A stretch of 64,000 bases of DNA, taken from positions 5,218 through 69,217 of the forward strand of contig JAAZDW010000021.1 of NCBI GenBank assembly GCA_012512595.1, in the 5' to 3' direction. The translations under genes were made by a program, and so were the position numbers. The DNA comes from Erysipelothrix sp. (GTDB lineage Bacteria; Bacillota_I; Bacilli_A; Erysipelotrichales; Erysipelotrichaceae). This document shows, one piece after another, positions 3,506 through 30,720 of the stretch. How positions within the stretch are numbered: the first letter of the stretch is position 1; each line of letters opens with the position of its first letter. The notes beneath the pieces are model-generated. The model was given only the letters and a program-made list of their open reading frames with translations. It searched no databases and had not been told where the DNA came from.

Positions 3506-4606
3506 TTAAACATTAAATCTAAATAAAATTATGTCTCCATCTTCAACCGTGTATTCTTTTCCCTCAGATCTTAATCTACCAGCGCTTTTTGCTCCAGCTT
3601 CTGAACCATACTTTATTAAATCGTCATAACTATATACTTCTGCTCTAATAAATCCTCTTTCAAAATCTGAATGAATGATACCCGCTGCTTGAGGTGCTTT
3701 GGTGCCTTTTTTAAATGTCCAAGCACGTACTTCAGTTGGACCTGCCGTAAAGTAAGTCTGTAAATCTAAAAGACTATAAGTGGCTTTAATTACTCTGTCC
3801 AAACCACTTTCACTAATATTTAACTCTTCAAAAAACAGTGATTTTTCTTCGTCGCTTAATTCAGATAAATCCTCTTCTGTTTTGGCACAAATAGGAATAA
3901 CTTCACTATTTTCCTTAGCCGCATGTGCTTTAACTAACTGAAAATATTCATTATCTTCTGGGTTAAAAACTCCCTCTTCACTCATGTTAGCAATATATAA
4001 TACTGGTTTACTAGTTAAAAGATGAAAATGTTTACATATTTTGGCTTCATCAACACTTAGGTCTAAACTTCTTACTAAGTTGTTTGCTTCCAAAGTTTTC
4101 TTTAGCTTTTCAAGCAAATTATTTTCAAATATAGCTTCTTGGTCTTTACTTTTAACTTTGCTTTTTAATCTGCCAATTCTATTTTCAATTGTTTGCAAGT
4201 CAGCAAAGATTAGTTCGAGGTTTATAATTTCAATGTCCCTTATTGGATCTACGCTATTTGAAACATGCGTTACACTGTCATCATCAAAACATCTAACGAC
4301 ATGACAGATAGCTTCAACTTCACGAATATGAGATAAAAAGCGATTGCCTAAGCCTTCGCCCTTACTAGCTCCCTCTACAAGTCCCGCAATATCTGTAAAT
4401 TCAAATGTTGTTGGAACTTCTTTTTTAGGTTGAATTCTTTTTGTTATTTCTGCCAATCTATGATCAGGCACTTCGACAACTCCGACGTTTGGGTCGATTG
4501 TTGCAAAAGGGTAATTTGCCGCTTCTACTTTTGATTTTGTAATTGCATTAAATAAGGTCGATTTACCAACGTTTGGTAAGCCAACTATTCCAGCTGTTAA
4601 AGCCAT
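3506..4606 (-). CDS. ychF: Redox-regulated ribosome-binding ATPase YchF
   Basis: 366 aa. It has a GLPNVGKST P-loop and a C-terminal TGS-like end (GKEYTVEDGDIILFRFNV). Confidence 0.95.
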   Translation of the reverse strand: MALTAGIVGLPNVGKSTLFNAITKSKVEAANYPFATIDPNVGVVEVPDHRLAEITKRIQPKKEVPTTFEFTDIAGLVEGASKGEGLGNRFLSHIREVEAICHVVRCFDDDSVTHVSNSVDPIRDIEIINLELIFADLQTIENRIGRLKSKVKSKDQEAIFENNLLEKLKKTLEANNLVRSLDLSVDEAKICKHFHLLTSKPVLYIANMSEEGVFNPEDNEYFQLVKAHAAKENSEVIPICAKTEEDLSELSDEEKSLFFEELNISESGLDRVIKATYSLLDLQTYFTAGPTEVRAWTFKKGTKAPQAAGIIHSDFERGFIRAEVYSYDDLIKYGSEAGAKSAGRLRSEGKEYTVEDGDIILFRFNV

Positions 4607-4649
4607 AATATCATCTCCAGTTTCTTATACCGTTCTACATTATAGCACA

Positions 4650-4853
4650 TTAAAGAGATTCTTCTTCAGCTTTTTCAACTATTTTTTTAAGTCTTTTTTC
4701 AAAGTATGGACGTTCTAACATGACAACTGCTCCACATCCTAAGCATTTTATTTTTATGTCTACACCCATCCTAACAATCTGCCAATGCATAGATTTTTTA
4801 CAAGGGTGTTGCTTTTTCATTTCTACGATATCATTTAAGGCATAATTATTCAT
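4650..4853 (-). CDS. DUF951 family small protein
   Basis: 67 aa with the HPC...W.IVRMG.DIKIKC.GC pattern. It overlaps the folD stop by 8 nt. Confidence 0.7.
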   Translation of the reverse strand: MNNYALNDIVEMKKQHPCKKSMHWQIVRMGVDIKIKCLGCGAVVMLERPYFEKRLKKIVEKAEEESL

Positions 4854-5688
4854 AAAAATCTCCTTTATAAGCTGAAAGTGTGTTCATCAGTAACATCGAA
4901 ATTGTAAGTGGTCCAACCCCTTTTGGAACTGGTGTTATATAACTAACCTTTTCAAACACATCATTAAAATCGACATCTCCAACTAACTTATTATTATCGT
5001 CACGATTAATACCAACATCAATTACTACTGCCCCTTTTTTGACATGCTTAGATTTAATAAATTCTTTTTGTCCTATTGCTACACATAGTATATCTGCCTG
5101 ACTTGTTATTGCTTCAAGGTTTTTGGTTTTACTATGACAAATACTTACTGTTGCATCAGCCTCTACAAATAATCTCGATAATGGTAATCCGACTAAATTA
5201 CTTCGGCCTACTACAACTACATGCTTATTCGCTACTTCAATGTTAGATTCTCTTAGCATATGTAATATCCCTTTAGGCGTACAAGGTTTAAATAAGGGCT
5301 TGCCTCTAAATAGCCTTCCTGCATTATAAAATGTAAATCCATCAACATCTTTACTACTTCTAACTGAATTAACTACTATACTTTCATTTAAATGAACTGG
5401 CAGAGGTAGCTGTACTATTATTCCATCTACTTCTTCATCATTGTTTAGGTTTTGTATTTTTTCTAATATTTCACTTTCGGTGGCTGTTTGTGGGTAGTCA
5501 AAAACTTTTACTTCTATGCCTACTTTTTTGCCCGCTTTGATTTTGCCTTTTACATAACTGGCACTAGCGAAATTATTACCGACTAAAACCACGCCAAGTA
5601 CTGGTGCCCGATTAAGCTTGCTTACTTCATCTTTTATTTCTTTAAAAAGTTTTAAGGCAATTTTGTCGCCTTCTATTATTTTTCCCAT
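4846..5688 (-). CDS. folD: Bifunctional methylenetetrahydrofolate dehydrogenase/cyclohydrolase
   Basis: 280 aa. ASYVKGK, VDGF, VVVGRSNLVGLP and TPVPKGVGPLT are FolD signatures. Confidence 0.95.
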   Translation of the reverse strand: MGKIIEGDKIALKLFKEIKDEVSKLNRAPVLGVVLVGNNFASASYVKGKIKAGKKVGIEVKVFDYPQTATESEILEKIQNLNNDEEVDGIIVQLPLPVHLNESIVVNSVRSSKDVDGFTFYNAGRLFRGKPLFKPCTPKGILHMLRESNIEVANKHVVVVGRSNLVGLPLSRLFVEADATVSICHSKTKNLEAITSQADILCVAIGQKEFIKSKHVKKGAVVIDVGINRDDNNKLVGDVDFNDVFEKVSYITPVPKGVGPLTISMLLMNTLSAYKGDFYE

Positions 5689-6131
5689 CCGTAATCCTCA
5701 CTATCTAACATAATTGTAAACGGGCCATTGTTAACTAATTTAATGTCCATATCCGCTTGAAATAGACCCGTTTTGACTGTTATTTCTTTATTTAATTGTT
5801 GATTAAAGTAATCATAAAGATTACTTGCAACATTACTATTGGCACTCCTTGAAAAACTTGGCCTTCGACCCTTTTTGGTTTCAGCATAAAGTGTAAACTG
5901 TGATATGCTAAGTATTTCTAAACTTCTTGACATAATTGATTCATTTGTTTTACCTTGTTCATCTTCTAGTATTCTCAAATTAACAATTTTTGAAACCATT
6001 TTATCTATAATCTCTTTATTATCATTTAAATTAAAACCTACAAATAAAACAAGACCCTCATTAATCTTATTATATTGCTGTCCTTCTATTATAACACTTG
6101 CTTGGCTTACTTTTTGAATTAAAACACGCAT
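5676..6131 (-). CDS. dtd: D-aminoacyl-tRNA deacylase
   Basis: Only the C-terminal 151 aa of the 319-aa ORF (from MRVLIQKV...) look like Dtd (SQFTLYA, NNGPFT). The ATG is at 6131-6129. The longer ORF runs antisense into rarA. Confidence 0.9.
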   Translation of the reverse strand: MRVLIQKVSQASVIIEGQQYNKINEGLVLFVGFNLNDNKEIIDKMVSKIVNLRILEDEQGKTNESIMSRSLEILSISQFTLYAETKKGRRPSFSRSANSNVASNLYDYFNQQLNKEITVKTGLFQADMDIKLVNNGPFTIMLDSEDYGWEK

Positions 6132-6192: not shown

Positions 6193-7437
6193 ATGAAAAC
6201 ACCATTAGCACACAAGTTAAGGCCAAAAATATTAGATGAAATTATCGGACAGCAACACTTAGTTGGTGAAGATAAAATTATTCGTAATATGATTAAAAAT
6301 GATTCGCTTTTTTCTATGATTCTTTTTGGAAGTCCTGGAACTGGTAAAACGACATTAGCAATGGTAATTGCTAATGAATTAAAAATACCTTTCAGAATTT
6401 TCAATGCTGTCGTTGGCAGTAAAAAAGACCTTGTCGCTATCTTTGAAGAAGGAAAACTGACAAACGGGCTTGTTGTTATTATTGAAGAAATACACCGTTT
6501 AAATAAAGACAAACAAGACTTACTTCTTCCACATTTAGAAGATGGAACAATTACTATCATTGGAACAACTACAGCCAACCCATACTTTTCAATTAATCCC
6601 GCCATTAGATCAAGGACACATTTGTTTGAGGTCAAGCCTTTAACCGAAAAAGATATTGTGTTTTCAATAAGTAATATTATGAATAGAGCAGAATTTAATC
6701 ATATCAATATCGAAGAAAGAGCTGTTGAAACAATTGCTAAACATGCTGGGGGTGATTTGCGAACCGCAATCAACCTTTTAGAGTTGTGTCTTTTAACCGG
6801 CAATAATATTACTAACGAGGATGTTTTAGAATTATCCAAACAACCTGTTATGAACATTGATGAAAGTGGCGATGGACACTACGATGCTTTGAGCGGGCTT
6901 CAAAAGTCAATTCGAGGTAGTGATGTGGATGCTGCCTTATATTATTTGGCACAACTATTACTTGCGGGTGACTTAGAATCTATATCTAGAAGACTGACCG
7001 TAATCGCCTATGAAGATGTAGGGTTTGGAAATCCAGCAGCAGTCGCAAGAACATTAGATGCCATTGAAGCTGCAGAACGAGTTGGATTGCCTGAAGCTAA
7101 AATGCCTTATAGTGTTGCCGTTATTGATTTAGCCTTATCACCTAAGTCTAGGACAGCAACTGAGGCAATAAATGAGGCAATGACCTATGTGAAGTATAAT
7201 CCACATCAAACACCAGACTATATCAAATACACACCCGTAAATTTAGCTGAGGATAAAAAATATCCTTATGATCGACCAGATCTTTGGCATAGAATTCAAT
7301 ATTTACCAAATCCTATCAAAGATATTGTATTTTATAAGGCTGAAAAAAATAGTAATTATGAAACTGCATTAGCAACAAACAACGAAAAGCTAAAAGAAAT
7401 TAAACGATCAAACCAATTAGATAAAATTAAAAAGTAG
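6193..7437 (+). CDS. rarA: Replication-associated recombination protein A (AAA+ ATPase)
   Basis: 414 aa. It has Walker A GSPGTGKTTLA and the MgsA C-terminal pattern (HYD..S...KS.RGSD.DAALYY). Confidence 0.9.
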   Translation: MKTPLAHKLRPKILDEIIGQQHLVGEDKIIRNMIKNDSLFSMILFGSPGTGKTTLAMVIANELKIPFRIFNAVVGSKKDLVAIFEEGKLTNGLVVIIEEIHRLNKDKQDLLLPHLEDGTITIIGTTTANPYFSINPAIRSRTHLFEVKPLTEKDIVFSISNIMNRAEFNHINIEERAVETIAKHAGGDLRTAINLLELCLLTGNNITNEDVLELSKQPVMNIDESGDGHYDALSGLQKSIRGSDVDAALYYLAQLLLAGDLESISRRLTVIAYEDVGFGNPAAVARTLDAIEAAERVGLPEAKMPYSVAVIDLALSPKSRTATEAINEAMTYVKYNPHQTPDYIKYTPVNLAEDKKYPYDRPDLWHRIQYLPNPIKDIVFYKAEKNSNYETALATNNEKLKEIKRSNQLDKIKK

Positions 7438-13675: not shown

Positions 13676-14281
13676 TTAAATTTTATTTCTACCTTCCATC
13701 GCTTTTATGATGGTTAAATCATCTGCATAGCCTAAGTGACCACCTACAGGAAGTCCATGAGCTATTCTTGATACCGCGATTTTTCCTTCACCGACTTGAT
13801 TTATTAATTTAGATAAATAAAGTGATGTCGTGTCGCCTTCAATAGTTAAGTTTGTAGCTATGATAATTTCTGCTAGTTTAGGATCTGCGAGCCTTTTTTC
13901 TAAGTCTTTTATATTTAAATCGTCTGGTAAAATTCCTTTTGATGGTGATATTAGACCATTTAAAACATGATACAGGCCGTGATAGTTTTCAGTCTTTTCC
14001 ATTGCAATTACATCAGACACACTTTCAACGACACATATTAGAGAACTATCTCGCTTTTCATCTTCGCAAATAGAACAAAAATTGGTTTCGGAGAGATTTC
14101 CACAAATCTGACAATACTTAGTGTTGTTTTTTGCATTAATAATTGAATTGGATAACTCTGAGACTACATCAGAATCTAGGTCTATAATACGCAATGCAAA
14201 CCTTTCCGCTGTTTTTTGACCAACGCTAGGCAACACTTGTAAGTTTTCAATTAACTCTTGTAATGATTTTGGGTATACCAT
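13676..14281 (-). CDS. recR: Recombination protein RecR
   Basis: It has LPSVGQKTAERF (HhH), a C..C...C..C zinc finger and a Toprim region. The start at MVYPKSLQ (14281) has a GAGGAG SD that overlaps the dnaX stop. Confidence 0.9.
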   Translation of the reverse strand: MVYPKSLQELIENLQVLPSVGQKTAERFALRIIDLDSDVVSELSNSIINAKNNTKYCQICGNLSETNFCSICEDEKRDSSLICVVESVSDVIAMEKTENYHGLYHVLNGLISPSKGILPDDLNIKDLEKRLADPKLAEIIIATNLTIEGDTTSLYLSKLINQVGEGKIAVSRIAHGLPVGGHLGYADDLTIIKAMEGRNKI

Positions 14282-14285
14282 TATG

Positions 14286-16094
14286 TCACTCCTCAATAGT
14301 AAATCCGTCTTTGCCAAATACGGATTCAGCTTTACTTATAAGACTATCAACTATTAATTCCTTTGTCTCTTCCACTATCTCAACTTCGATTTTATCTGGT
14401 AATGTATTGTTAGCTGCTCTTGTTTTAAATTTTTCTATGATTTCTTGTGATTTTTCAGTTGTTATCGCAAACACCCTTAACTCTTCATTTAATTTTTCCT
14501 TTAAAAATTTAGTTAAGCCTATTTGATTAGAATCATCATTTAAATCAGTTGCTAAGTGATTATGCTCAACAACCGCGACTACATAATTATCTCCTATTGC
14601 TAGAATGCTGCTTTTACATAGTTTATAAGCATATTTCGCTACTTCTACATCATTACAGTAATTGACAATATTTTCCCAGTCTGTTTGGATACTGATTCTT
14701 TTTTCTTTATCTGCAAAAGTTAAAAGTGAAAGTAGTGTTTCATCATTCAAAACTATGTCTCGTTGTGGTTCTGTTTTATGAACGCCAATAACATCTATAT
14801 CTTCTTTATCGTCGTTTTTATCCATATCTGAATCATTTGAATCTAAATCTAGCTTTTTTACCTTTGTTTCTTCAGAAGTCGGTGTCAAATGTTTTTTAAA
14901 TTCTTCCTCAATATTAATTTTATCTACTACTTCTTTTTTGTAATTAGTGTTTTTAGTTGGTTTAGCTATAGTGACATCTTTTTGTGGCGAGATTTCTTCA
15001 GAAAATTTAGTTTTATTTTCAACAATACTTATCATTTTAATAAAGCCTAATTCCATGTAGGAAACTAAGTCTGATATATTCTTTTTTGCTGCATCAATAT
15101 CCATTAAAATATCAATCATCTGCAATAATTGTGAAGAGTTCACAACATTAAGGATTGATTCTACTTCTTCTTTTGATAGATTTTGTAGCAATTCGGTGGA
15201 CTTTGAATAACTATAAATAACTGTTTCCTTTAACGTGTTCACTAACTCAATATTAAATCTTTCAAGATCGTTTCCTTGGTTGCTTATTTTGTCTAATAGA
15301 GCTAGAGTTTCCTTCATTTTAAGTTTAAAAATATTATCTAGTAGTTCAAGTTTTTCTTCCTTTGTCACAATTCCATATATTCTTCTTACGTCTTCTACTG
15401 TTACTAGCTCAGGTGAGTATGCAACACTTTGTTCAAGAATACTAAGACTGTTTCTTACTCCACCATCAGCTAAATTACTAATTAGCTGAATCGCTTTTTT
15501 ATCATAGTCGATGTTTTCACCATTCAGAACTTTTACAATATTATCAAAAATATCAGATTCTTTAACTCTTGTAAAATCATATCGTTGACATCTTGAAATA
15601 ATCGTTGGGATAACTTTATGCGGTTCTGTAGTTGCTAAAATAAACACAACATGTGCTGGTGGTTCTTCAAGCGTTTTTAAAAGTGCATTGAAGGCCCCTA
15701 AAGACAACATGTGTACCTCATCAATAATATAAATTTTATATTTGCCTTTTAAAGGAGAATATTTAACTTTTTCTATTAAACTTCTTATTTCATCTACCCC
15801 ATTATTACTAGCCGCATCAATCTCAACTACATCGGGATGAATGTTATTTTTTGTATCGAGGCAATTCGAGCATTTATCACAAATAATTTGGTCTTTTGAC
15901 TCACAGTTTATTGCTTTTGCAAACAGTTTTGCCACACTCGTCTTCCCGTTTCCACTAGGACCAGTGAACAAATAAGCATGAGCTAGTCTATTTTGAGCTA
16001 AAGCATTGGTTAATGTTTGGACAATATGCTGTTGACCCGCAATATCATCAAATGTTGATGGCCTATATTTTCTATATAAAGCTGTATATGACAT
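14286..16094 (-). CDS. dnaX: DNA polymerase III subunit tau (gamma/tau)
   Basis: 602 aa. It has Walker A GPSGNGKTS, a Cys cluster CDKCSNC, DEVHML and an SRC motif. Confidence 0.95.
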   Translation of the reverse strand: MSYTALYRKYRPSTFDDIAGQQHIVQTLTNALAQNRLAHAYLFTGPSGNGKTSVAKLFAKAINCESKDQIICDKCSNCLDTKNNIHPDVVEIDAASNNGVDEIRSLIEKVKYSPLKGKYKIYIIDEVHMLSLGAFNALLKTLEEPPAHVVFILATTEPHKVIPTIISRCQRYDFTRVKESDIFDNIVKVLNGENIDYDKKAIQLISNLADGGVRNSLSILEQSVAYSPELVTVEDVRRIYGIVTKEEKLELLDNIFKLKMKETLALLDKISNQGNDLERFNIELVNTLKETVIYSYSKSTELLQNLSKEEVESILNVVNSSQLLQMIDILMDIDAAKKNISDLVSYMELGFIKMISIVENKTKFSEEISPQKDVTIAKPTKNTNYKKEVVDKINIEEEFKKHLTPTSEETKVKKLDLDSNDSDMDKNDDKEDIDVIGVHKTEPQRDIVLNDETLLSLLTFADKEKRISIQTDWENIVNYCNDVEVAKYAYKLCKSSILAIGDNYVVAVVEHNHLATDLNDDSNQIGLTKFLKEKLNEELRVFAITTEKSQEIIEKFKTRAANNTLPDKIEVEIVEETKELIVDSLISKAESVFGKDGFTIEE

Positions 16095-16127
16095 GTTTTC
16101 GCCTCCTTATTACATTATAACAAACAA

Positions 16128-17507
16128 CTAGTCATCTTTATTGAACACTTCTTTAATCTTTTTCTTTAATAAAGCATAGTGTCTATTCTTTGCTAAATCA
16201 AAATCTTCTTGCCTGTTTTCTGATGATAAAACAATCTTTTCTATTATTTCTCTAATGATAACCATTACATCATAAAGGTTTTCCTCATAAATAATTCTTA
16301 TAGTTTTTTGACTTATCAAGCAATCAGCCACTATTTCGTACAGTTCATCCCCTATCCCTTGGCAATCAATATTGGCCTCACACTTTTCCATTTGTTTTTT
16401 AAACCAGTTTGGGCTAAAAAGAATTTCTTTTATAAAATTATTAAATTTATTGAAAGTAATAACAACGTCATCATTCTCTAACATAAAAAGCATTGAAAAT
16501 AGGACATGCCAGTCAAAGTCTACATTCATTACACTTAAACAGTATTCCCCAAACTTTTCCAGAAAAGGATTCCCATTACTTATTTCTTCTTTAATTTTTA
16601 TAGGTACGGTGAAATCCATTTCTGAATGTGAAAGCAAATTTAGCTTCTCAAAGTAGGACATCATTACTATTTGAGGTTGATCCGACCTAACAAAATTTTC
16701 TATATAAATATATTGGCTTAATAGGGCACTTATTTTCTTTATGTTTGCCTCAATATCAATTGTTTCTTTTAATTTTACTGAAAACAAATCATTTATAGAT
16801 TTTCCTAAAAAGGATTTAAAACTCTTGTCATCCATTCCGACTGCTTGAGAATCAATCTGTGTCATTTGATCATAGACTTTTGTAAGTTGATAATCAATTG
16901 TCTCTAAATTTGATTTTATCGAGTGTAGTATTTCTTTCAAAAAGCTGTCAAATAACAAGTAGTTGTTATTTTTATAAATAACCTCATGCTCTATACCCGA
17001 CCAAAAGGTGTTTATTAGTGATTTGATTTGTAATTCAAAATTGATCTTTTTTCCATTTTGATAGCGATATCCATCAATTCTGTAGTCATCAAAACCATTT
17101 TTTTGTTTTTGAGGTTGTTCCATTCTCAAATTTAAATACATTGAAGGATCTTTTTTAGCTTGAAAGAAGTCTCCTTCTCCTTCTTTAAACTCTTCTTTTA
17201 TTAAATTAAGAAGTTTAACCTCATCATCCTTAAATCGGCATTCTAGGGTAACTCCAACAATATCAGAAAGGTTATTTAAGATATCTTCGGAACTTTGATA
17301 GTCCAAGTAATATTTTTTTCTTACTATTTTGCTTTTTAAACTGTCTTCTGTCTTTACCCTCGATGTATTACCTATGTAATTTTCATTGTTTTCAACTAAA
17401 TTTACTAAAAAATCAACAATACTTCTTTCGGCTTGTTCATATTGTTTTCTGTTTTGTTTCAGCAAGCTAGCTGCTTCATCTACTAATTTAAATAATTTCA
17501 ATGTCAA
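16128..17507 (-). CDS. RelA/SpoT synthetase-domain (small-alarmone-synthetase-like) protein with a ~260-aa uncharacterised C-terminal region
   Basis: The motifs SRVKTEDSLKSKIVRK, DIVGVTLECRF, NGFDDYRIDGY and FELQIKSLINTFWSGIEHEVIYK are in the order found in RelQ/SasA. There is no HD/TGS/ACT region. The start is TTG (17507, or 17501) behind AAAGGAGGG. The 5' end overlaps ribF. Confidence 0.7.
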   Translation of the reverse strand: MTLKLFKLVDEAASLLKQNRKQYEQAERSIVDFLVNLVENNENYIGNTSRVKTEDSLKSKIVRKKYYLDYQSSEDILNNLSDIVGVTLECRFKDDEVKLLNLIKEEFKEGEGDFFQAKKDPSMYLNLRMEQPQKQKNGFDDYRIDGYRYQNGKKINFELQIKSLINTFWSGIEHEVIYKNNNYLLFDSFLKEILHSIKSNLETIDYQLTKVYDQMTQIDSQAVGMDDKSFKSFLGKSINDLFSVKLKETIDIEANIKKISALLSQYIYIENFVRSDQPQIVMMSYFEKLNLLSHSEMDFTVPIKIKEEISNGNPFLEKFGEYCLSVMNVDFDWHVLFSMLFMLENDDVVITFNKFNNFIKEILFSPNWFKKQMEKCEANIDCQGIGDELYEIVADCLISQKTIRIIYEENLYDVMVIIREIIEKIVLSSENRQEDFDLAKNRHYALLKKKIKEVFNKDD

Positions 17508-18441
17508 AGGCCCTCCTTTGCTCTTTTGTAAAATATTCTTCGGTTACTTTAATGTCATTATCCATTTGCTCTATGAGCTCTGTTACACTTGAAAACTTTT
17601 CTTCATCTCTAATTCTTTCTAATATGTAGAAAGTCACTTTTTGTCCATAGGTGTCTTCGCTATAATTATGAACAAAGGATTCTATTGATTTATGTTTTAC
17701 TGTATTAATTGTCGGGTTGTGTCCAATGTTTATCGTAGACACATATTTTTTACCCATTATAATTGAAATCCCAATGTAAACACCATCTTTAGGGACTATC
17801 TTACTATCTTCAATTAATAAATTCAGGGTTGGAAAGCCAATCGTCCGGCCTTTTTTTCTACCATGCATTACAAATCCATTTAATTCGTATGAATAACCTA
17901 ACAGGTTGTTTGCAACATTCATGCTACCTGCTTCTACTTGTTTTTTAATTATTGTAGAGCTAATTCTTTCGTTTATATACTTAAAGTCTTGAATTACACT
18001 TAAACCAATTTCTTCAATGGCTCTTAACGTATCTACATTGCCGCTTCCTTTATAACCAAATCGAAAATCTTCACCACAGACAAGGTGTTTGACATTCAAA
18101 GTTTTTATAACTTTTTCATAAAATAAATTTGGCTCTAGTTGTGATAACTCTGGAGTAAACCTTAATACAATCAAAACTTCTATTCCTAACTTTTTAGCAA
18201 TAGCTGCCTTTTCTTCCACTGTTGTTAATAATTTCTCTGGTTGTTTTAGTAGAACTGATTGTGGTGATGGCGAAAAGGTTATTAATGCAGGCACTAATTG
18301 TTTTAATTGCGCTTGTTTTAGTGTTTCTTTGACCAATTCTTGGTGTCCTCTATGTAAACCATCAAAAAAGCCAATTGCAGCTACTAATGGTTTAAACTCT
18401 ATAGTCAATCTACTGTTTAATTCAAAATGTACTATTTTCAT
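17488..18441 (-). CDS. ribF: Bifunctional riboflavin kinase / FMN adenylyltransferase
   Basis: It has GFFDGLHRGHQ, GYKGSG and GFPTLN motifs. ATG at 18441 is preferred over 18450 on SD spacing. Confidence 0.9.
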   Translation of the reverse strand: MKIVHFELNSRLTIEFKPLVAAIGFFDGLHRGHQELVKETLKQAQLKQLVPALITFSPSPQSVLLKQPEKLLTTVEEKAAIAKKLGIEVLIVLRFTPELSQLEPNLFYEKVIKTLNVKHLVCGEDFRFGYKGSGNVDTLRAIEEIGLSVIQDFKYINERISSTIIKKQVEAGSMNVANNLLGYSYELNGFVMHGRKKGRTIGFPTLNLLIEDSKIVPKDGVYIGISIIMGKKYVSTINIGHNPTINTVKHKSIESFVHNYSEDTYGQKVTFYILERIRDEEKFSSVTELIEQMDNDIKVTEEYFTKEQRRAFDIEII

Positions 18442-18443
18442 AT

Positions 18444-19283
18444 TTACCATAACCCTCTTTTTGATTTAAATATATTTTCTTCTACTCTTTCATAAAAAGC
18501 CATGATTTTATTTTCTACTTCTATTAAGACTAAGTCATCCTTTGTATATATTTCTATTTTTCTACCGTTAATTATATCCGATAAGTTTTCATATTTATAT
18601 ATTGGGTATTTGCTTAGAGCCCGTCTTGGATCCACAATTTTATATTGCTTATTTCTTAACTCTGATATTGTGTTTGCCTCTTCTAAAGTAAATTCTCCTA
18701 TTTTAGTTCTTACTAAAGATGTCATCGTCCCAACCGTGTCTAATTTATTCGCGATATCTAAACAAAGAGTTCTAATGTATGTTCCAGAGGAACAAGCAAC
18801 CCTTATTTTAATTGTATGATCATAGTCCAAAAGTTCTATTTCATAAATTTCTATTTCACGCTTTGGTATTTCTATTACTTGATTTGCTCTAGCAAGTTCA
18901 TAAAGTTTTTTACCTTGAATTTTAATAGCTGAATACATGGGTGGTCTTTGCATTTGTTTACCTTTAAACGATTCTAAAACTTGTTTAAAATCAGCCTTTG
19001 TTGGCTTTATGTAATCTTCTTCTTTAGTAATTTTTCCCCAAATATCTAAAGTGTCTGTCAAAACACCTAATTTCATCTCTAAAACATACTCTTTATCGTC
19101 AGTTTGTAGATAATTAACCAACTTGGTTGCCTTTCCAAATGCCATTACCATTAAACCGGTTGCATTTGGATCTAGAGTTCCTGTGTGCCCTACTCTTTTC
19201 ATATCAAGTTGTCTTCTAACTATATTAACCAAGTCGTGAGATGTCATATCAACTTCTTTATTTAATAGTAGCAATCCGTTCAT
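18444..19283 (-). CDS. truB: tRNA pseudouridine(55) synthase
   Basis: 279 aa. It has the catalytic GHTGTLDP motif and YSAIK. Confidence 0.95.
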   Translation of the reverse strand: MNGLLLLNKEVDMTSHDLVNIVRRQLDMKRVGHTGTLDPNATGLMVMAFGKATKLVNYLQTDDKEYVLEMKLGVLTDTLDIWGKITKEEDYIKPTKADFKQVLESFKGKQMQRPPMYSAIKIQGKKLYELARANQVIEIPKREIEIYEIELLDYDHTIKIRVACSSGTYIRTLCLDIANKLDTVGTMTSLVRTKIGEFTLEEANTISELRNKQYKIVDPRRALSKYPIYKYENLSDIINGRKIEIYTKDDLVLIEVENKIMAFYERVEENIFKSKRGLW

Positions 19284-19335: not shown

Positions 19336-19785
19336 TCATCTTTTGTTTTTTAAAAAATCTTCAATGATTTTTTTGCACTTTTGTTCTAAAACTTTAGTCT
19401 TTACAATCAATTGATGGTTATGATTATTTTCAAATATATGTTTTGAACTAATAACTGCTCCATCTTTATTGTCTAACGTCCCTATTACAACTTTTCTTAT
19501 TCTGGATTGGACAATTGCACTTGCACACATTGCACATGGTTCTAATGTCACATACAGGTCACATTCACTTAATCTCCAGCTATTTAAATGTTTGGAAGCT
19601 GCATTAATCGCGATTATCTCTGCATGATCAGTCGCTGTTTGATTCGTCTCTTTTAAATTATGTGCTTGCGCGATAACTGTATCTTTATAAACTATGACAC
19701 ATCCAACTGGGATTTCATTTAGTTTATAAGCCATTTTGGCTTGTTCTAAGGCTTTTTGCATATATTTTTCTTCGTTATTATTCAT
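19336..19785 (-). CDS. tadA: tRNA-specific adenosine deaminase
   Basis: 149 aa. It has the deaminase zinc motifs HAEIIAI and PCAMCA. Confidence 0.9.
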   Translation of the reverse strand: MNNNEEKYMQKALEQAKMAYKLNEIPVGCVIVYKDTVIAQAHNLKETNQTATDHAEIIAINAASKHLNSWRLSECDLYVTLEPCAMCASAIVQSRIRKVVIGTLDNKDGAVISSKHIFENNHNHQLIVKTKVLEQKCKKIIEDFLKNKR

Positions 19786-19858
19786 GCAATCCCTCCCTTG
19801 TTATTGTCTGTGCTTATACATTGTATCACACCAAAAGTCATATTTTCCCATATAAAAA

Positions 19859-19932
19859 GGCACACACAAATATTGGTTGAGTAAGGCTGCTTCCTTCCGG
19901 ACCTGACCTGATTACAACATACTTGTTGTGCC
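19859..19932 (-). ncRNA. ffs: Signal recognition particle RNA, short (4.5S-like) form
   Basis: The minus strand reads GGCACAACAAG...CAGGUCAGGUCCGGAAGGAAGCAGCC...UUUGUGUGUGCC. This is the universally conserved domain IV motif, with 5' and 3' ends that pair, followed by UUUUUAU. The 67-aa ORF 19782-19985 over it is spurious. Confidence 0.85.
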
Positions 19933-19938
19933 ATAGTT

Positions 19939-19967
19939 ATTATACAATTATGCTTAGTAAAAATCAA
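19939..19967 (-). promoter_or_regulatory. Sigma-A type promoter of the SRP RNA
   Basis: On the minus strand: TTGATT, a 17-nt spacer, then TATAAT. The -10 ends 6 nt upstream of the predicted RNA 5' G. Confidence 0.7.
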
Positions 19968-20025
19968 ATTTATGTAACATTTCAACCTTTATTCAAAAAG
20001 GCCTTAAAATGTTTCACGTGTAACA

Positions 20026-28489: not shown

Positions 28490-28631
28490 TGTATTTCCTC
28501 CTTTTATATACTTCTTTAAATGCTAATAGTAATAAGGGCTGTGGATAACGTGGATAACTCCATTATATCCCGTATATATAGTCTATATTACCATTATTTA
28601 CTGTTAATATAAAGTTAATTAGTGTGTATAA
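28490..28631. other. oriC part 2 (dnaA-dnaN spacer): tandem DnaA boxes, GC cluster, DnaA-trio-like repeats and an AT-rich stretch
   Basis: TGTGGATAA is at 28540-28548 and CGTGGATAA at 28549-28557. They are preceded by GGGC (28536-28539) and TAA TAG TAA TAA (28524-28535). AT-rich sequence then runs to the dnaN start. Confidence 0.7.
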
Positions 28632-29999: not shown

Positions 30000-30720
30000 A
30001 TAAACACCTCATAATTAACTCTATTCTACAATAATTCGATTTTTAATTAAAGGTAAAAAATCAATAGAAAAAGTTATCCACATGTTTATAATACTTAATG
30101 TCTTTATTGATAGCCTCTTTAAAGTTATCCCCAGTTATCCATAAGATTTATTGTGGATAACTTTTCAAGTCAAAATTCAATATTTGTGCCCATTATAATA
30201 AACAGTTAGGTTTTATTAAAAAAATCCAAATTATTAATGAGAAAATATAGTTAAATCTTCAAAATGATGATAGAAGAGTAAAAAGGTTTCAATATATTAC
30301 ATTTAATTCTTTATCCACTGGGGTTAACTCTATGTGGATAACGTGGACAACTACATTGTGAATAACTAACAACGTTAACAACTTTCAATCAATAAACGCC
30401 GTTTTAAGGGTGTTTTTAGGCTATCCCCAATATCCACACACTGTTGATAAGTATAAAATTAAATTGTTGATAAGCTATTTATAAGAGTAATAGTCTTACA
30501 ATTAAATAAAACTAAAATTAATAAGATATAAGGCCAAATACCTACAAGAAATCGATGTAATTGTTGAGGAAATTATTAATTATGGTTTTAACTAGAGCAA
30601 CCTATAAATAATAGAGTGACAAAAATAAAGAAGTGCCGTAAAAGACTTGGCAATGAACTATTTATCACATTGTTGGGGATAACTTAGAGAGTCTTAAAAT
30701 ATATTTTAATAAAGGATTAT
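30000..30720. other. oriC part 1: DnaA-box cluster between the divergent dnaA and rpmH genes
   Basis: A perfect TTATCCACA is at 30074-30082. Its complement is at 30152-30160 and 30333-30341. One-mismatch boxes are at 30125, 30135, 30311, 30357, 30430, 30442, 30465 and 30674. A two-mismatch box is at 30342. Long AT-rich tracts lie between the boxes. Confidence 0.85.

Follow-up and report, generated by a model that had tools for sequence, protein, structure and literature searches.

A RelA/SpoT homologue of probable cloRel/RelC affiliation with an altered acceptor loop and a family-specific helical domain in Erysipelothrix

Introduction

A 64,000-nucleotide stretch of Erysipelothrix sp. DNA (contig JAAZDW010000021.1 of assembly GCA_012512595.1, positions 5,218 to 69,217 of the forward strand; henceforth the window) encodes, between ribF and dnaX, a 459-residue protein that combines a synthetase domain from the family of RelA/SpoT homologues (RSH) with a long C-terminal region in which no known domain is recognisable. 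This architecture raises the question of whether the protein is a toxin held in check by a fused phage sensor, in the manner of the CapRel proteins, or a resident enzyme of the cell whose output is set by an attached domain. An earlier note, made from the bare sequence, had left the choice between a lineage-specific, gated nucleotide or tRNA pyrophosphokinase and a toxin fused to its sensor that had entered a core operon. Our analysis, which combined profile searches, structure prediction, comparison of loci and examination of composition, shows an ATP site conserved almost in full throughout a sizeable family, an acceptor loop peculiar to that family, a helical domain found only with this kind of synthetase and a chromosomal position conserved in Erysipelotrichaceae. 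The second alternative is not supported, whereas the first is compatible with an intact catalytic set, an altered acceptor loop and a family-specific C-terminal domain. The note was made without knowledge that the family already had names, cloRel from 2011 and RelC from 2021. With moderate confidence, we explain the protein as an active, non-defensive chromosomal pyrophosphokinase of the cloRel subfamily with modified acceptor binding and an output set by its C-terminal domain.

A synthetase domain of RelP/RelQ-type fold with a conserved donor site and a divergent acceptor loop

The Pfam profile RelA_SpoT (PF04607) matches residues 49-182 over positions 1-112 of its 113, and the score of 49.5 bits against a threshold of 27 (E = 6e-13) indicates that the similarity to RelA/SpoT enzymes is not due to chance. 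It is the sole Pfam match in the whole protein, with no HD, TGS, ACT or RNA-binding domain; the combination of HD hydrolase, TGS and ACT/RRM that marks the long RSH proteins is absent. The four motifs of the small alarmone synthetases (SAS) are located in the usual order at residues 49-64, 82-92, 137-147 and 157-179. The earlier note had recognised both this order and the want of accessory domains, and the three substitutions which it had pointed out are real, namely GVR to GVT (T87), NGY to NGF (F139) and QIRT to QIKS (K162/S163).

We built an AlphaFold2 (AF2) model of the full-length protein with an alignment of 82 family sequences (mean predicted local distance difference test, pLDDT, 88.8; predicted template-modelling score, pTM, 0.53, at which the relative placement of its two domains is not reliably predicted). 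The model displays a RelP/RelQ-like alpha/beta core at residues 44-180, succeeded by a long helix at residues 188-220 and then by a helical C-terminal domain. In Foldseek searches against the PDB, RelP of Staphylococcus aureus (SaRelP) and RelQ/RelP of Bacillus subtilis come out on top (E = 5e-7 to 5e-5; target-normalised template-modelling (TM) scores of 0.53-0.73, and of 0.64-0.73 for the best at E = 5e-7), followed by an exported synthetase of Streptomyces. The toxic SAS (toxSAS) proteins CapRel and FaRel2 rank much lower, with E-values of 1e-3 to 1e-2 and TM scores of about 0.4. Likewise, when the family profile was run against the sequences of PDB entries, the matches were limited to chains of the RelP/RelQ type, which are, therefore, the best matches among solved structures by sequence as well as by fold. 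These results predict a RelP/RelQ-type synthetase fold for the N-terminal 220 residues; the profile alignment with SaRelP extends to about residue 223 and includes the counterpart of the alpha5 helix, where 99% of family members keep D205 and 94% keep L201. Near the N-terminus of the protein, more than 90% of the members share L3 and F6.

The protein shares with RelP and RelQ the long alpha5 helix after the core, a chromosomal location and the lack of an antitoxin. It differs from them, however, in that they are single-domain proteins of about 200-240 residues, whereas it is twice as long and has an extra domain of 235 residues. It also scores far below the cut-off of the NCBIfam model GTPPhKinYjbM, which captures RelP/RelQ at the equivalog level (34.1 bits versus 320).

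The structure of SaRelP allows the active site to be mapped residue by residue. In that enzyme, the adenine of ATP is stacked between R78 and R112, the phosphates are bound by K80, S84, K88 and R91, Mg2+ is held by D107 and E174, and H190 binds the ribose (Steinchen et al., PMC5794853). In the profile alignment R78, K80, S84, K88, R91, D107, E174 and H190 correspond to R50, K52, S56, K60, R63, D82, E158 and H174, so that eight of the nine ATP/Mg2+ ligands are retained and just one arginine of the set shared by RelP and RelQ is missing, the equivalent of R112 being T87. Across 137 full-length members, the synthetase cores of which have a mean pairwise identity of 0.49, R50, K52, S56, K60, D82, E158, Q160, H174, Y178, K179 and N180 are conserved without exception; R63 is the family consensus and is kept here, though it lies outside this invariant set. 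At position 87, the 82-sequence alignment has arginine in 40, threonine in 24 and methionine in 14 sequences, and the Erysipelotrichaceae members carry threonine or methionine. The adenine-stacking arginine is thus lost in this protein and in roughly half of the aligned sequences, not throughout the family, and its replacement by threonine or methionine (38 of the 82, including this protein) goes without mention in the cloRel/RelC papers cited below.

The acceptor side presents a different picture. The G-loop QPQKQKNGF aligns with HP--KENGY of SaRelP, with P146, N149, G150 and Y151 corresponding to P132 (the RelP-type G-loop proline), N137, G138 and F139. About 10 residues are inserted relative to SaRelP between strand beta2 and the G-loop, and two more within the loop itself. 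None of Q131, P132, Q135, N137 and G138 varies among the 82 aligned sequences, and Y142, R143, D145 and G146 in the strand after the loop are also conserved. In contrast, the position of the tyrosine, which is Y151 in SaRelP and Y116 in B. subtilis RelQ and is reported to be critical to every (p)ppGpp synthetase (PMC5794853), varies among phenylalanine (57 of the 82), methionine (10), histidine (5), tyrosine (3), isoleucine (3) and glutamine (2). Structural work on FaRel2 employed its Y128F variant, in which the phenylalanine still stacks the base (PMC11782079). Taken together, these alignments make the donor site look functional and the acceptor site systematically remodelled.

Affiliation with the cloRel/RelC family

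A search of 5.8 billion protein sequences recovered 119 matches, nearly all of 450-526 residues and with 90-100% coverage of the query, and more than 130 full-length relatives are found in Erysipelotrichaceae and Clostridia. The description 'orphan' that had been attached to the gene consequently holds for its lack of a partner gene and not for its lack of kin. The relatives include a 'GTP pyrophosphokinase' of Clostridium tetani (AAO35055.1; 519/535 residues; E = 1.9e-67, 35% identity, 99% coverage) and a 'relA/spoT family protein' of C. perfringens (E = 1e-57), along with proteins of Natranaerovirga, Cellulosilyticum, Sarcina and Filifactoraceae and more distant representatives from Romboutsia, Maliibacterium and Oscillospiraceae. 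The Erysipelotrichaceae proteins, at 450-466 residues, are shorter than those of Clostridium at 495-526.

CloRel was defined as a SAS subgroup confined to Firmicutes and listed for C. tetani E88, C. perfringens and C. difficile, in a data set that contained no Erysipelotrichia (Atkinson et al. 2011, PMC3153485). As the RSH proteins of C. tetani E88 are exactly three, cloRel, Rel and RelP (PMC3153485, supplements), the C. tetani relative is identified as cloRel by elimination. The C. difficile member was later named RelC (CDR20291_1607) and described as a Firmicutes-only protein with a SAS domain, a 250-residue C-terminal region without a conserved domain, and a divergent GDP motif with an insert (2021 preprint, bioRxiv 10.1101/2021.08.02.454818). 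The C. difficile entry itself was not among our matches: a profile search seeded with the 82 aligned sequences brought up no protein beyond those already known to us, and cluster look-ups for RelC gave metagenome-assembled genomes (MAGs) of Clostridiaceae, Maliibacterium, Oscillospiraceae and Romboutsia. The link to RelC, therefore, rests on the literature and on the Romboutsia member, which belongs to the Peptostreptococcaceae as does C. difficile and has QPQKQ at residues 133-137, in agreement with the Q137 numbering of the preprint.

The homology of the protein with its C. tetani and C. perfringens relatives extends over the full length, it joins a SAS domain to about 250 residues devoid of a recognisable domain, its relatives are likewise restricted to Firmicutes, and it shows the conserved ATP motif, the divergent G-loop (GDP) motif lacking the tyrosine and, upstream of that motif, an insertion of about 10 residues. 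We accordingly assign it to the cloRel/RelC subfamily with high confidence, and refer to its gene as cloRel.

A helical C-terminal domain confined to the family

The unrecognised and probably helical C-terminal module of the earlier note is borne out by the model and the searches. Predicted in isolation, residues 222-459 give a confident AF2 structure of eleven helices (pLDDT 92.6, pTM 0.89). Neither Pfam nor the PHROGs collection has a match to this domain alone, and Foldseek retrieves nothing significant: the best PDB match is to a designed helical repeat (E = 0.13, TM 0.28), and the best in the BFVD set of viral structures has E = 1.4 (TM below 0.3). We also found no similarity beyond the synthetase domain to the CapRel entries 7ztb and 9erv.

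An exhaustive HMMER scan of 1.84 billion representative proteins with residues 200-459 gave 97 matches, which sit at about residues 200-455 of proteins of 440-512 residues or are fragments; the exception is one protein of 2,726 residues that was matched only through short repeated stretches. Since the scan yielded only family members or fragments of them, the domain occurs only in fusion with a cloRel-type synthetase domain. A stand-alone gene for it, as expected of a split toxin-antitoxin form, was considered among the short matches and rejected, as these start at scattered internal positions (MYRIDGKY..., MVNVFWSEIEHK...) and are fragments.

The mean pairwise identity of the C-terminal domain is 0.25, as against the 0.49 of the synthetase core. 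Its conserved positions are mainly aromatic or aliphatic (N328, W333, F337, L340, F341 and F355), and most of them fall within a core motif N328-x-D-F-x-W333-x3-F337-x2-L-F341. A divergent HD hydrolase was likewise rejected, as the domain has no similarity to the structures of Rel, SpoT or Mesh1 and no conserved set of histidines and aspartates. In keeping with a non-catalytic module, nothing in this pattern points to a second catalytic site, and the domain would serve in regulation or oligomerisation.

The gene and its genomic context

The open reading frame (ORF) list of the window gives a complete coding sequence on the minus strand (459 codons and a stop; Table 1), which the earlier note had correctly delimited without stating the strand. 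The identical protein in NCBI, from an Erysipelothrix sp. MAG (GX769_03175, annotated as a hypothetical protein), is called at 457 residues from a second TTG, two codons downstream of the first. Homologues begin with M-x-L-x-L-F, which agrees with the first TTG and not with the second, and we therefore favour the longer form. The strong Shine-Dalgarno sequence, the overlap with ribF, the 33-nucleotide spacer before dnaX and the extended -10-like TGTTATAAT within it had all been noticed before and are present as described. The 20-nucleotide overlap, which has an equivalent in other Erysipelothrix loci, suggests translational coupling, and no intrinsic terminator is predicted on the minus strand from 21336 to 13445. 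In Erysipelotrichaceae, co-transcription of cloRel with ribF and translational coupling between the two are probable.

Table 1. Features of the cloRel locus (positions in the window; aa, residues of the 459-residue protein; CDS, coding sequence)
Feature	Position	Strand	Basis
cloRel/RelC-type RSH CDS	16128..17507	-	TAG stop 16128-16130, TTG start; ORF list, identical NCBI protein, full-length homologues
N-terminal helical pair, aa 1-43 (helices 4-18, 20-38)	17379..17507	-	AF2, pLDDT 79-97
RelA/SpoT synthetase (pyrophosphokinase) core, aa 44-185	16953..17378	-	R50, K52, S56, K60, R63, D82, E158, H174; PF04607, SaRelP alignment, Foldseek
Acceptor-site G-loop QPQKQKNGF, aa 131-139	17091..17117	-	Family motif QPQxQKNG[F/M/H/Y]; profile alignment with SaRelP
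Long helix, aa 188-220 (RelP/RelQ alpha5 equivalent), and low-confidence linker, aa 219-224	16833..16952	-	AF2, SaRelP alignment
Family-specific all-alpha domain, aa 226-459, about 11 helices	16131..16832	-	Stand-alone AF2; no Pfam, PHROG, PDB or BFVD match
Shine-Dalgarno sequence AAAGGAGGG	17511-17519	-	3 nt upstream of TTG; read from sequence
ribF 3' end / cloRel 5' end overlap, 20 nt	17488..17507	-	ORF coordinates
Conserved upstream partners truB and ribF	truB 18444-19283; ribF 17488-18450	-	Pfam TruB_N, FAD_syn, Flavokinase
Spacer to dnaX, 33 nt	16095..16127	-	TGTTATAAT 16114-16122; dnaX Shine-Dalgarno AAGGAGG 16102-16108; read from sequence

To place the gene in a wider context we scanned one genome per GTDB species, found a relative in at least 548 genomes and compared the best 80 loci, all of which come from Erysipelotrichaceae (Erysipelothrix, Anaerorhabdus, Holdemania, Bulleidia, Solobacterium, Lactimicrobium and Galactobacillus). 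Among these, truB and ribF lie upstream of cloRel in every locus with enough flanking sequence, and the arrangement truB-ribF(-rsmF)-cloRel is kept in at least seven genera. The order truB-ribF-cloRel-dnaX-recR is that of the window and five further Erysipelothrix loci. Most of the other loci read truB-ribF-rsmF-cloRel-asp23-infC-rplT, in which rsmF, coding for an RsmB/F-type m5C methyltransferase, separates ribF from cloRel, a gene for a 111-residue Asp23-family protein follows cloRel after about 37 nucleotides, and infC-rpmI-rplT lies further downstream; in Anaerorhabdus furcosa (locus L016), for instance, the RsmB/F-type gene spans 3670-4992 and the Asp23-family gene 6411-6746. Both rsmF and asp23 are missing from the positions flanking cloRel in the window. 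As truB-ribF-cloRel is conserved across genera and only the downstream neighbour changes, cloRel was not inserted into a ribF-dnaX pair, contrary to the picture of a gene 'wedged' between them; the truB-ribF-cloRel block is ancestral, and it is dnaX that became the neighbour in Erysipelothrix. The gene is, then, vertically inherited in Erysipelotrichaceae beside genes of the translation machinery. This fixed linkage, too, is not mentioned in the cited cloRel/RelC papers.

In Clostridia, the neighbours vary and there is no conserved partner; they are clpB and cvfB in C. perfringens, purA in Natranaerovirga and two-component systems elsewhere. In C. tetani, a gene for a THUMP/RlmL-type RNA methyltransferase precedes cloRel on the same strand (4669-5811 in loci L005/L006); it is a second, independent RNA-modification neighbour, but other Clostridia lack it. 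A conserved small partner ORF was seen neither in the window nor in the Erysipelotrichaceae and Clostridia loci compared, in line with the earlier note.

The composition of the gene is equally unexceptional. Its GC content of 0.288 lies marginally below the mean of 0.321 for the 49 ORFs of the window (z = -1.3), to which extent the earlier impression of a more AT-rich gene stands; however, GC at third codon positions is slightly above the window mean (z = +0.9), and the AT content of the core genes recF, dnaN and dnaA matches or exceeds that of cloRel. By codon-usage distance the gene ranks sixth of the 49, among core genes. Base composition and codon usage are thus ordinary, and a foreign origin on compositional grounds was rejected by these measures.

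The window contains a bipartite oriC. Boxes for DnaA of the form TTATCCACA, with at most one mismatch, number 41 against an expectation of 23 +/- 4.9; three lie between dnaA and dnaN (28540-28631) and 11 upstream of dnaA (30074-30682), and gene orientation switches here, with yidC and jag/khpB on the plus strand from 31338. From oriC the minus strand reads dnaA, dnaN, recF, gyrB, gyrA, serS, the signal recognition particle (SRP) RNA, tadA, truB, ribF, cloRel, dnaX, recR and nadK, so that cloRel lies about 12.5 kb from oriC, on the leading strand, within a co-directional block of core genes. Some further observations concern this block. In the stretch 13676-16094 of the minus strand, dnaX (602 codons) overlaps recR by 32 nucleotides with no ybaB/ebfC between them, and the two are also adjacent in related Erysipelothrix loci. 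A small bacterial SRP RNA (RF00169, 55.6 bits) lies at 19851-19937 on the minus strand between serS and tadA, and the ORF called over it (19782..19985, minus strand) is spurious. Three mechanically called ORFs of 57, 94 and 68 codons on the plus strand (16308-16656 and 17386-17592), in or across the cloRel gene, are unsupported and probably arose by chance in AT-rich DNA.

Toxin, RNA-directed enzyme, pseudoenzyme or resident alarmone synthetase

In the explanation that we favour, ATP would donate its beta,gamma-pyrophosphate, which the enzyme would place on the 3'-OH of a purine nucleotide, yielding a (pp)pGpp- or (pp)pApp-type alarmone. Binding of the acceptor would be modified through the rigid, family-specific loop QPQxQKNG-F, with phenylalanine in the place of tyrosine, and the C-terminal domain, attached through the long alpha5 helix, would set the output. 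In RelQ, Glu178 of alpha5 forms a salt bridge with Arg117 of the G-loop during allosteric activation (PMC5794853). Because the connecting helix is the predicted equivalent of this alpha5, with its nearly invariant D205, and alpha5 of RelQ relays to the G-loop, we infer by analogy that the C-terminal domain may act on the G-loop through it. Chromosomal, non-toxin precedents for a SAS domain joined to one extra domain are RelZ (MS_RHII-RSD) of Mycobacterium smegmatis and actRel with DUF429 (PMC7591505, PMC3153485), although these carry a recognisable domain (RNase HII, DUF429) at the N-terminal end, whereas the one added here is C-terminal and matches nothing known. Several points weigh against this explanation. 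The adenine-stacking arginine is a threonine in this protein and persists in only about half of the aligned sequences; the G-loop tyrosine has given way to phenylalanine in a position that the family fills variously, the same change as in the FaRel2 variant chosen for structural work, and such a change may result in low activity or a non-guanine acceptor. The relay through alpha5 is an analogy with RelQ, and the model does not fix how the two domains pack. Moreover, our literature search brought up no demonstrated activity for any cloRel/RelC member, nor anything relevant in later work on cloRel/RelC or on ppGpp in Erysipelothrix, and the sole reported attempt to express C. difficile RelC in Escherichia coli failed (bioRxiv 10.1101/2021.08.02.454818).

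The strongest form of the acceptor argument would make these proteins a distinct, vertically inherited class of housekeeping pyrophosphokinases, in which the remodelled loop selects an acceptor other than GDP or GTP (adenine nucleotides or an RNA 3' end) and a helical sensor of new fold switches activity via alpha5; we consider this full version unlikely. Narrower, and in our estimation improbable, is the proposal that the acceptor is the 3' end of tRNA or rRNA and that the enzyme acts with its neighbours in ribosome or tRNA maturation or quality control. The synthetase domain is acidic to neutral (isoelectric point, pI, 6.0; family median 5.6) and the C-terminal domain acidic (pI 4.9), a charge poorly suited to RNA binding; Pfam detects no RNA-binding domain, the structure is nearer RelP/RelQ than the tRNA-modifying enzymes, and the Clostridia surround the gene with other neighbours. 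What speaks for it is the company of truB, the RsmF-like m5C methyltransferase and infC-rpmI-rplT in Erysipelotrichaceae and of the THUMP/RlmL-type gene in C. tetani, a G-loop unlike the guanine-nucleotide type, and the tRNA pyrophosphorylation known from the RSH enzymes FaRel2 and CapRel (PMC11782079). A similarly low probability attaches to a pseudoenzyme or nucleotide sensor that has kept the ATP site for binding and, with catalysis lost or vestigial, uses its helical domain to act as regulator or scaffold. The absence of the adenine-stacking arginine in the Erysipelotrichaceae members, the replaced G-loop tyrosine with its echo in the FaRel2 variant, and the silence of the literature on activity would fit such a protein, but complete conservation of R50, K52, K60, D82, E158, Q160 and H174 in 137 sequences that are only about 49% identical is not expected once catalysis is lost. 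The fused toxin-sensor of the earlier note would be a CapRel-type toxSAS that arrests growth, pyrophosphorylating tRNA or making (pp)pApp, restrained in cis by the C-terminal domain and released when a phage protein is sensed. With CapRel the protein does share a single polypeptide, a synthetase followed by a presumably regulatory C-terminal domain and the want of a partner gene; further, its C-terminal domain evolves about twice as fast as the core, and the failure of RelC expression in E. coli could reflect toxicity. Yet CapRel is autoinhibited by a pseudo-zinc-finger domain bearing a YXXY motif (PMC11782079), which differs in size and fold class from the 235-residue all-helical domain, and the poor Foldseek rank of CapRel and FaRel2 extends the dissimilarity to the synthetase. 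PADLOC has no match to the protein; the gene lies in a core cluster near oriC and not in a defence island, prophage or mobile element, with conserved rather than patchy synteny and ordinary composition; and the two- or three-gene operon with an adjacent antitoxin that is typical of toxSAS modules is absent. Phage genomes gave only distant matches to the synthetase domain (24% identity) and no full-length copy. In the plasmid collection, the full-length matches, none of them on small plasmids, come from 0.7-0.9-Mb replicons of C. butyricum and from one 2.6-Mb record. Against this background, we regard the CapRel-type toxin as very improbable, even granting a weak PHROG match. The family concerned, phrog_9640 (function unknown, profile length 365), matches residues 18-383 (E = 8e-10), a span that reaches beyond the synthetase domain.

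Implications

The cloRel gene of the window is a catalogued family member, neither a defence system nor a foreign insertion, and the literature already describes the family with its unusual architecture. Points that may be novel are the extension of the family to the Erysipelotrichaceae, its fixed linkage to truB-ribF there, the residue-level map of the active site, and the recognition that the C-terminal domain has a confidently predicted fold with no relative among the solved structures of the PDB or the viral structures of BFVD that were searched. The subject is of some consequence, as this RSH family was named fifteen years ago and is present in C. difficile, C. perfringens, C. tetani and Erysipelothrix, pathogens in which no product, regulator or phenotype has yet been assigned to it. 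Three handles are now available, namely a strictly conserved donor site opposite an acceptor loop that departs systematically from those of (p)ppGpp synthetases, a C-terminal domain that never occurs apart from its synthetase, and a gene that in Erysipelotrichaceae is fixed behind truB-ribF among the genes of translation. Were the acceptor indeed other than GDP or GTP, these proteins would, in Erysipelotrichaceae and Clostridia, tie a non-canonical alarmone or RNA mark to how the translation apparatus is expressed.

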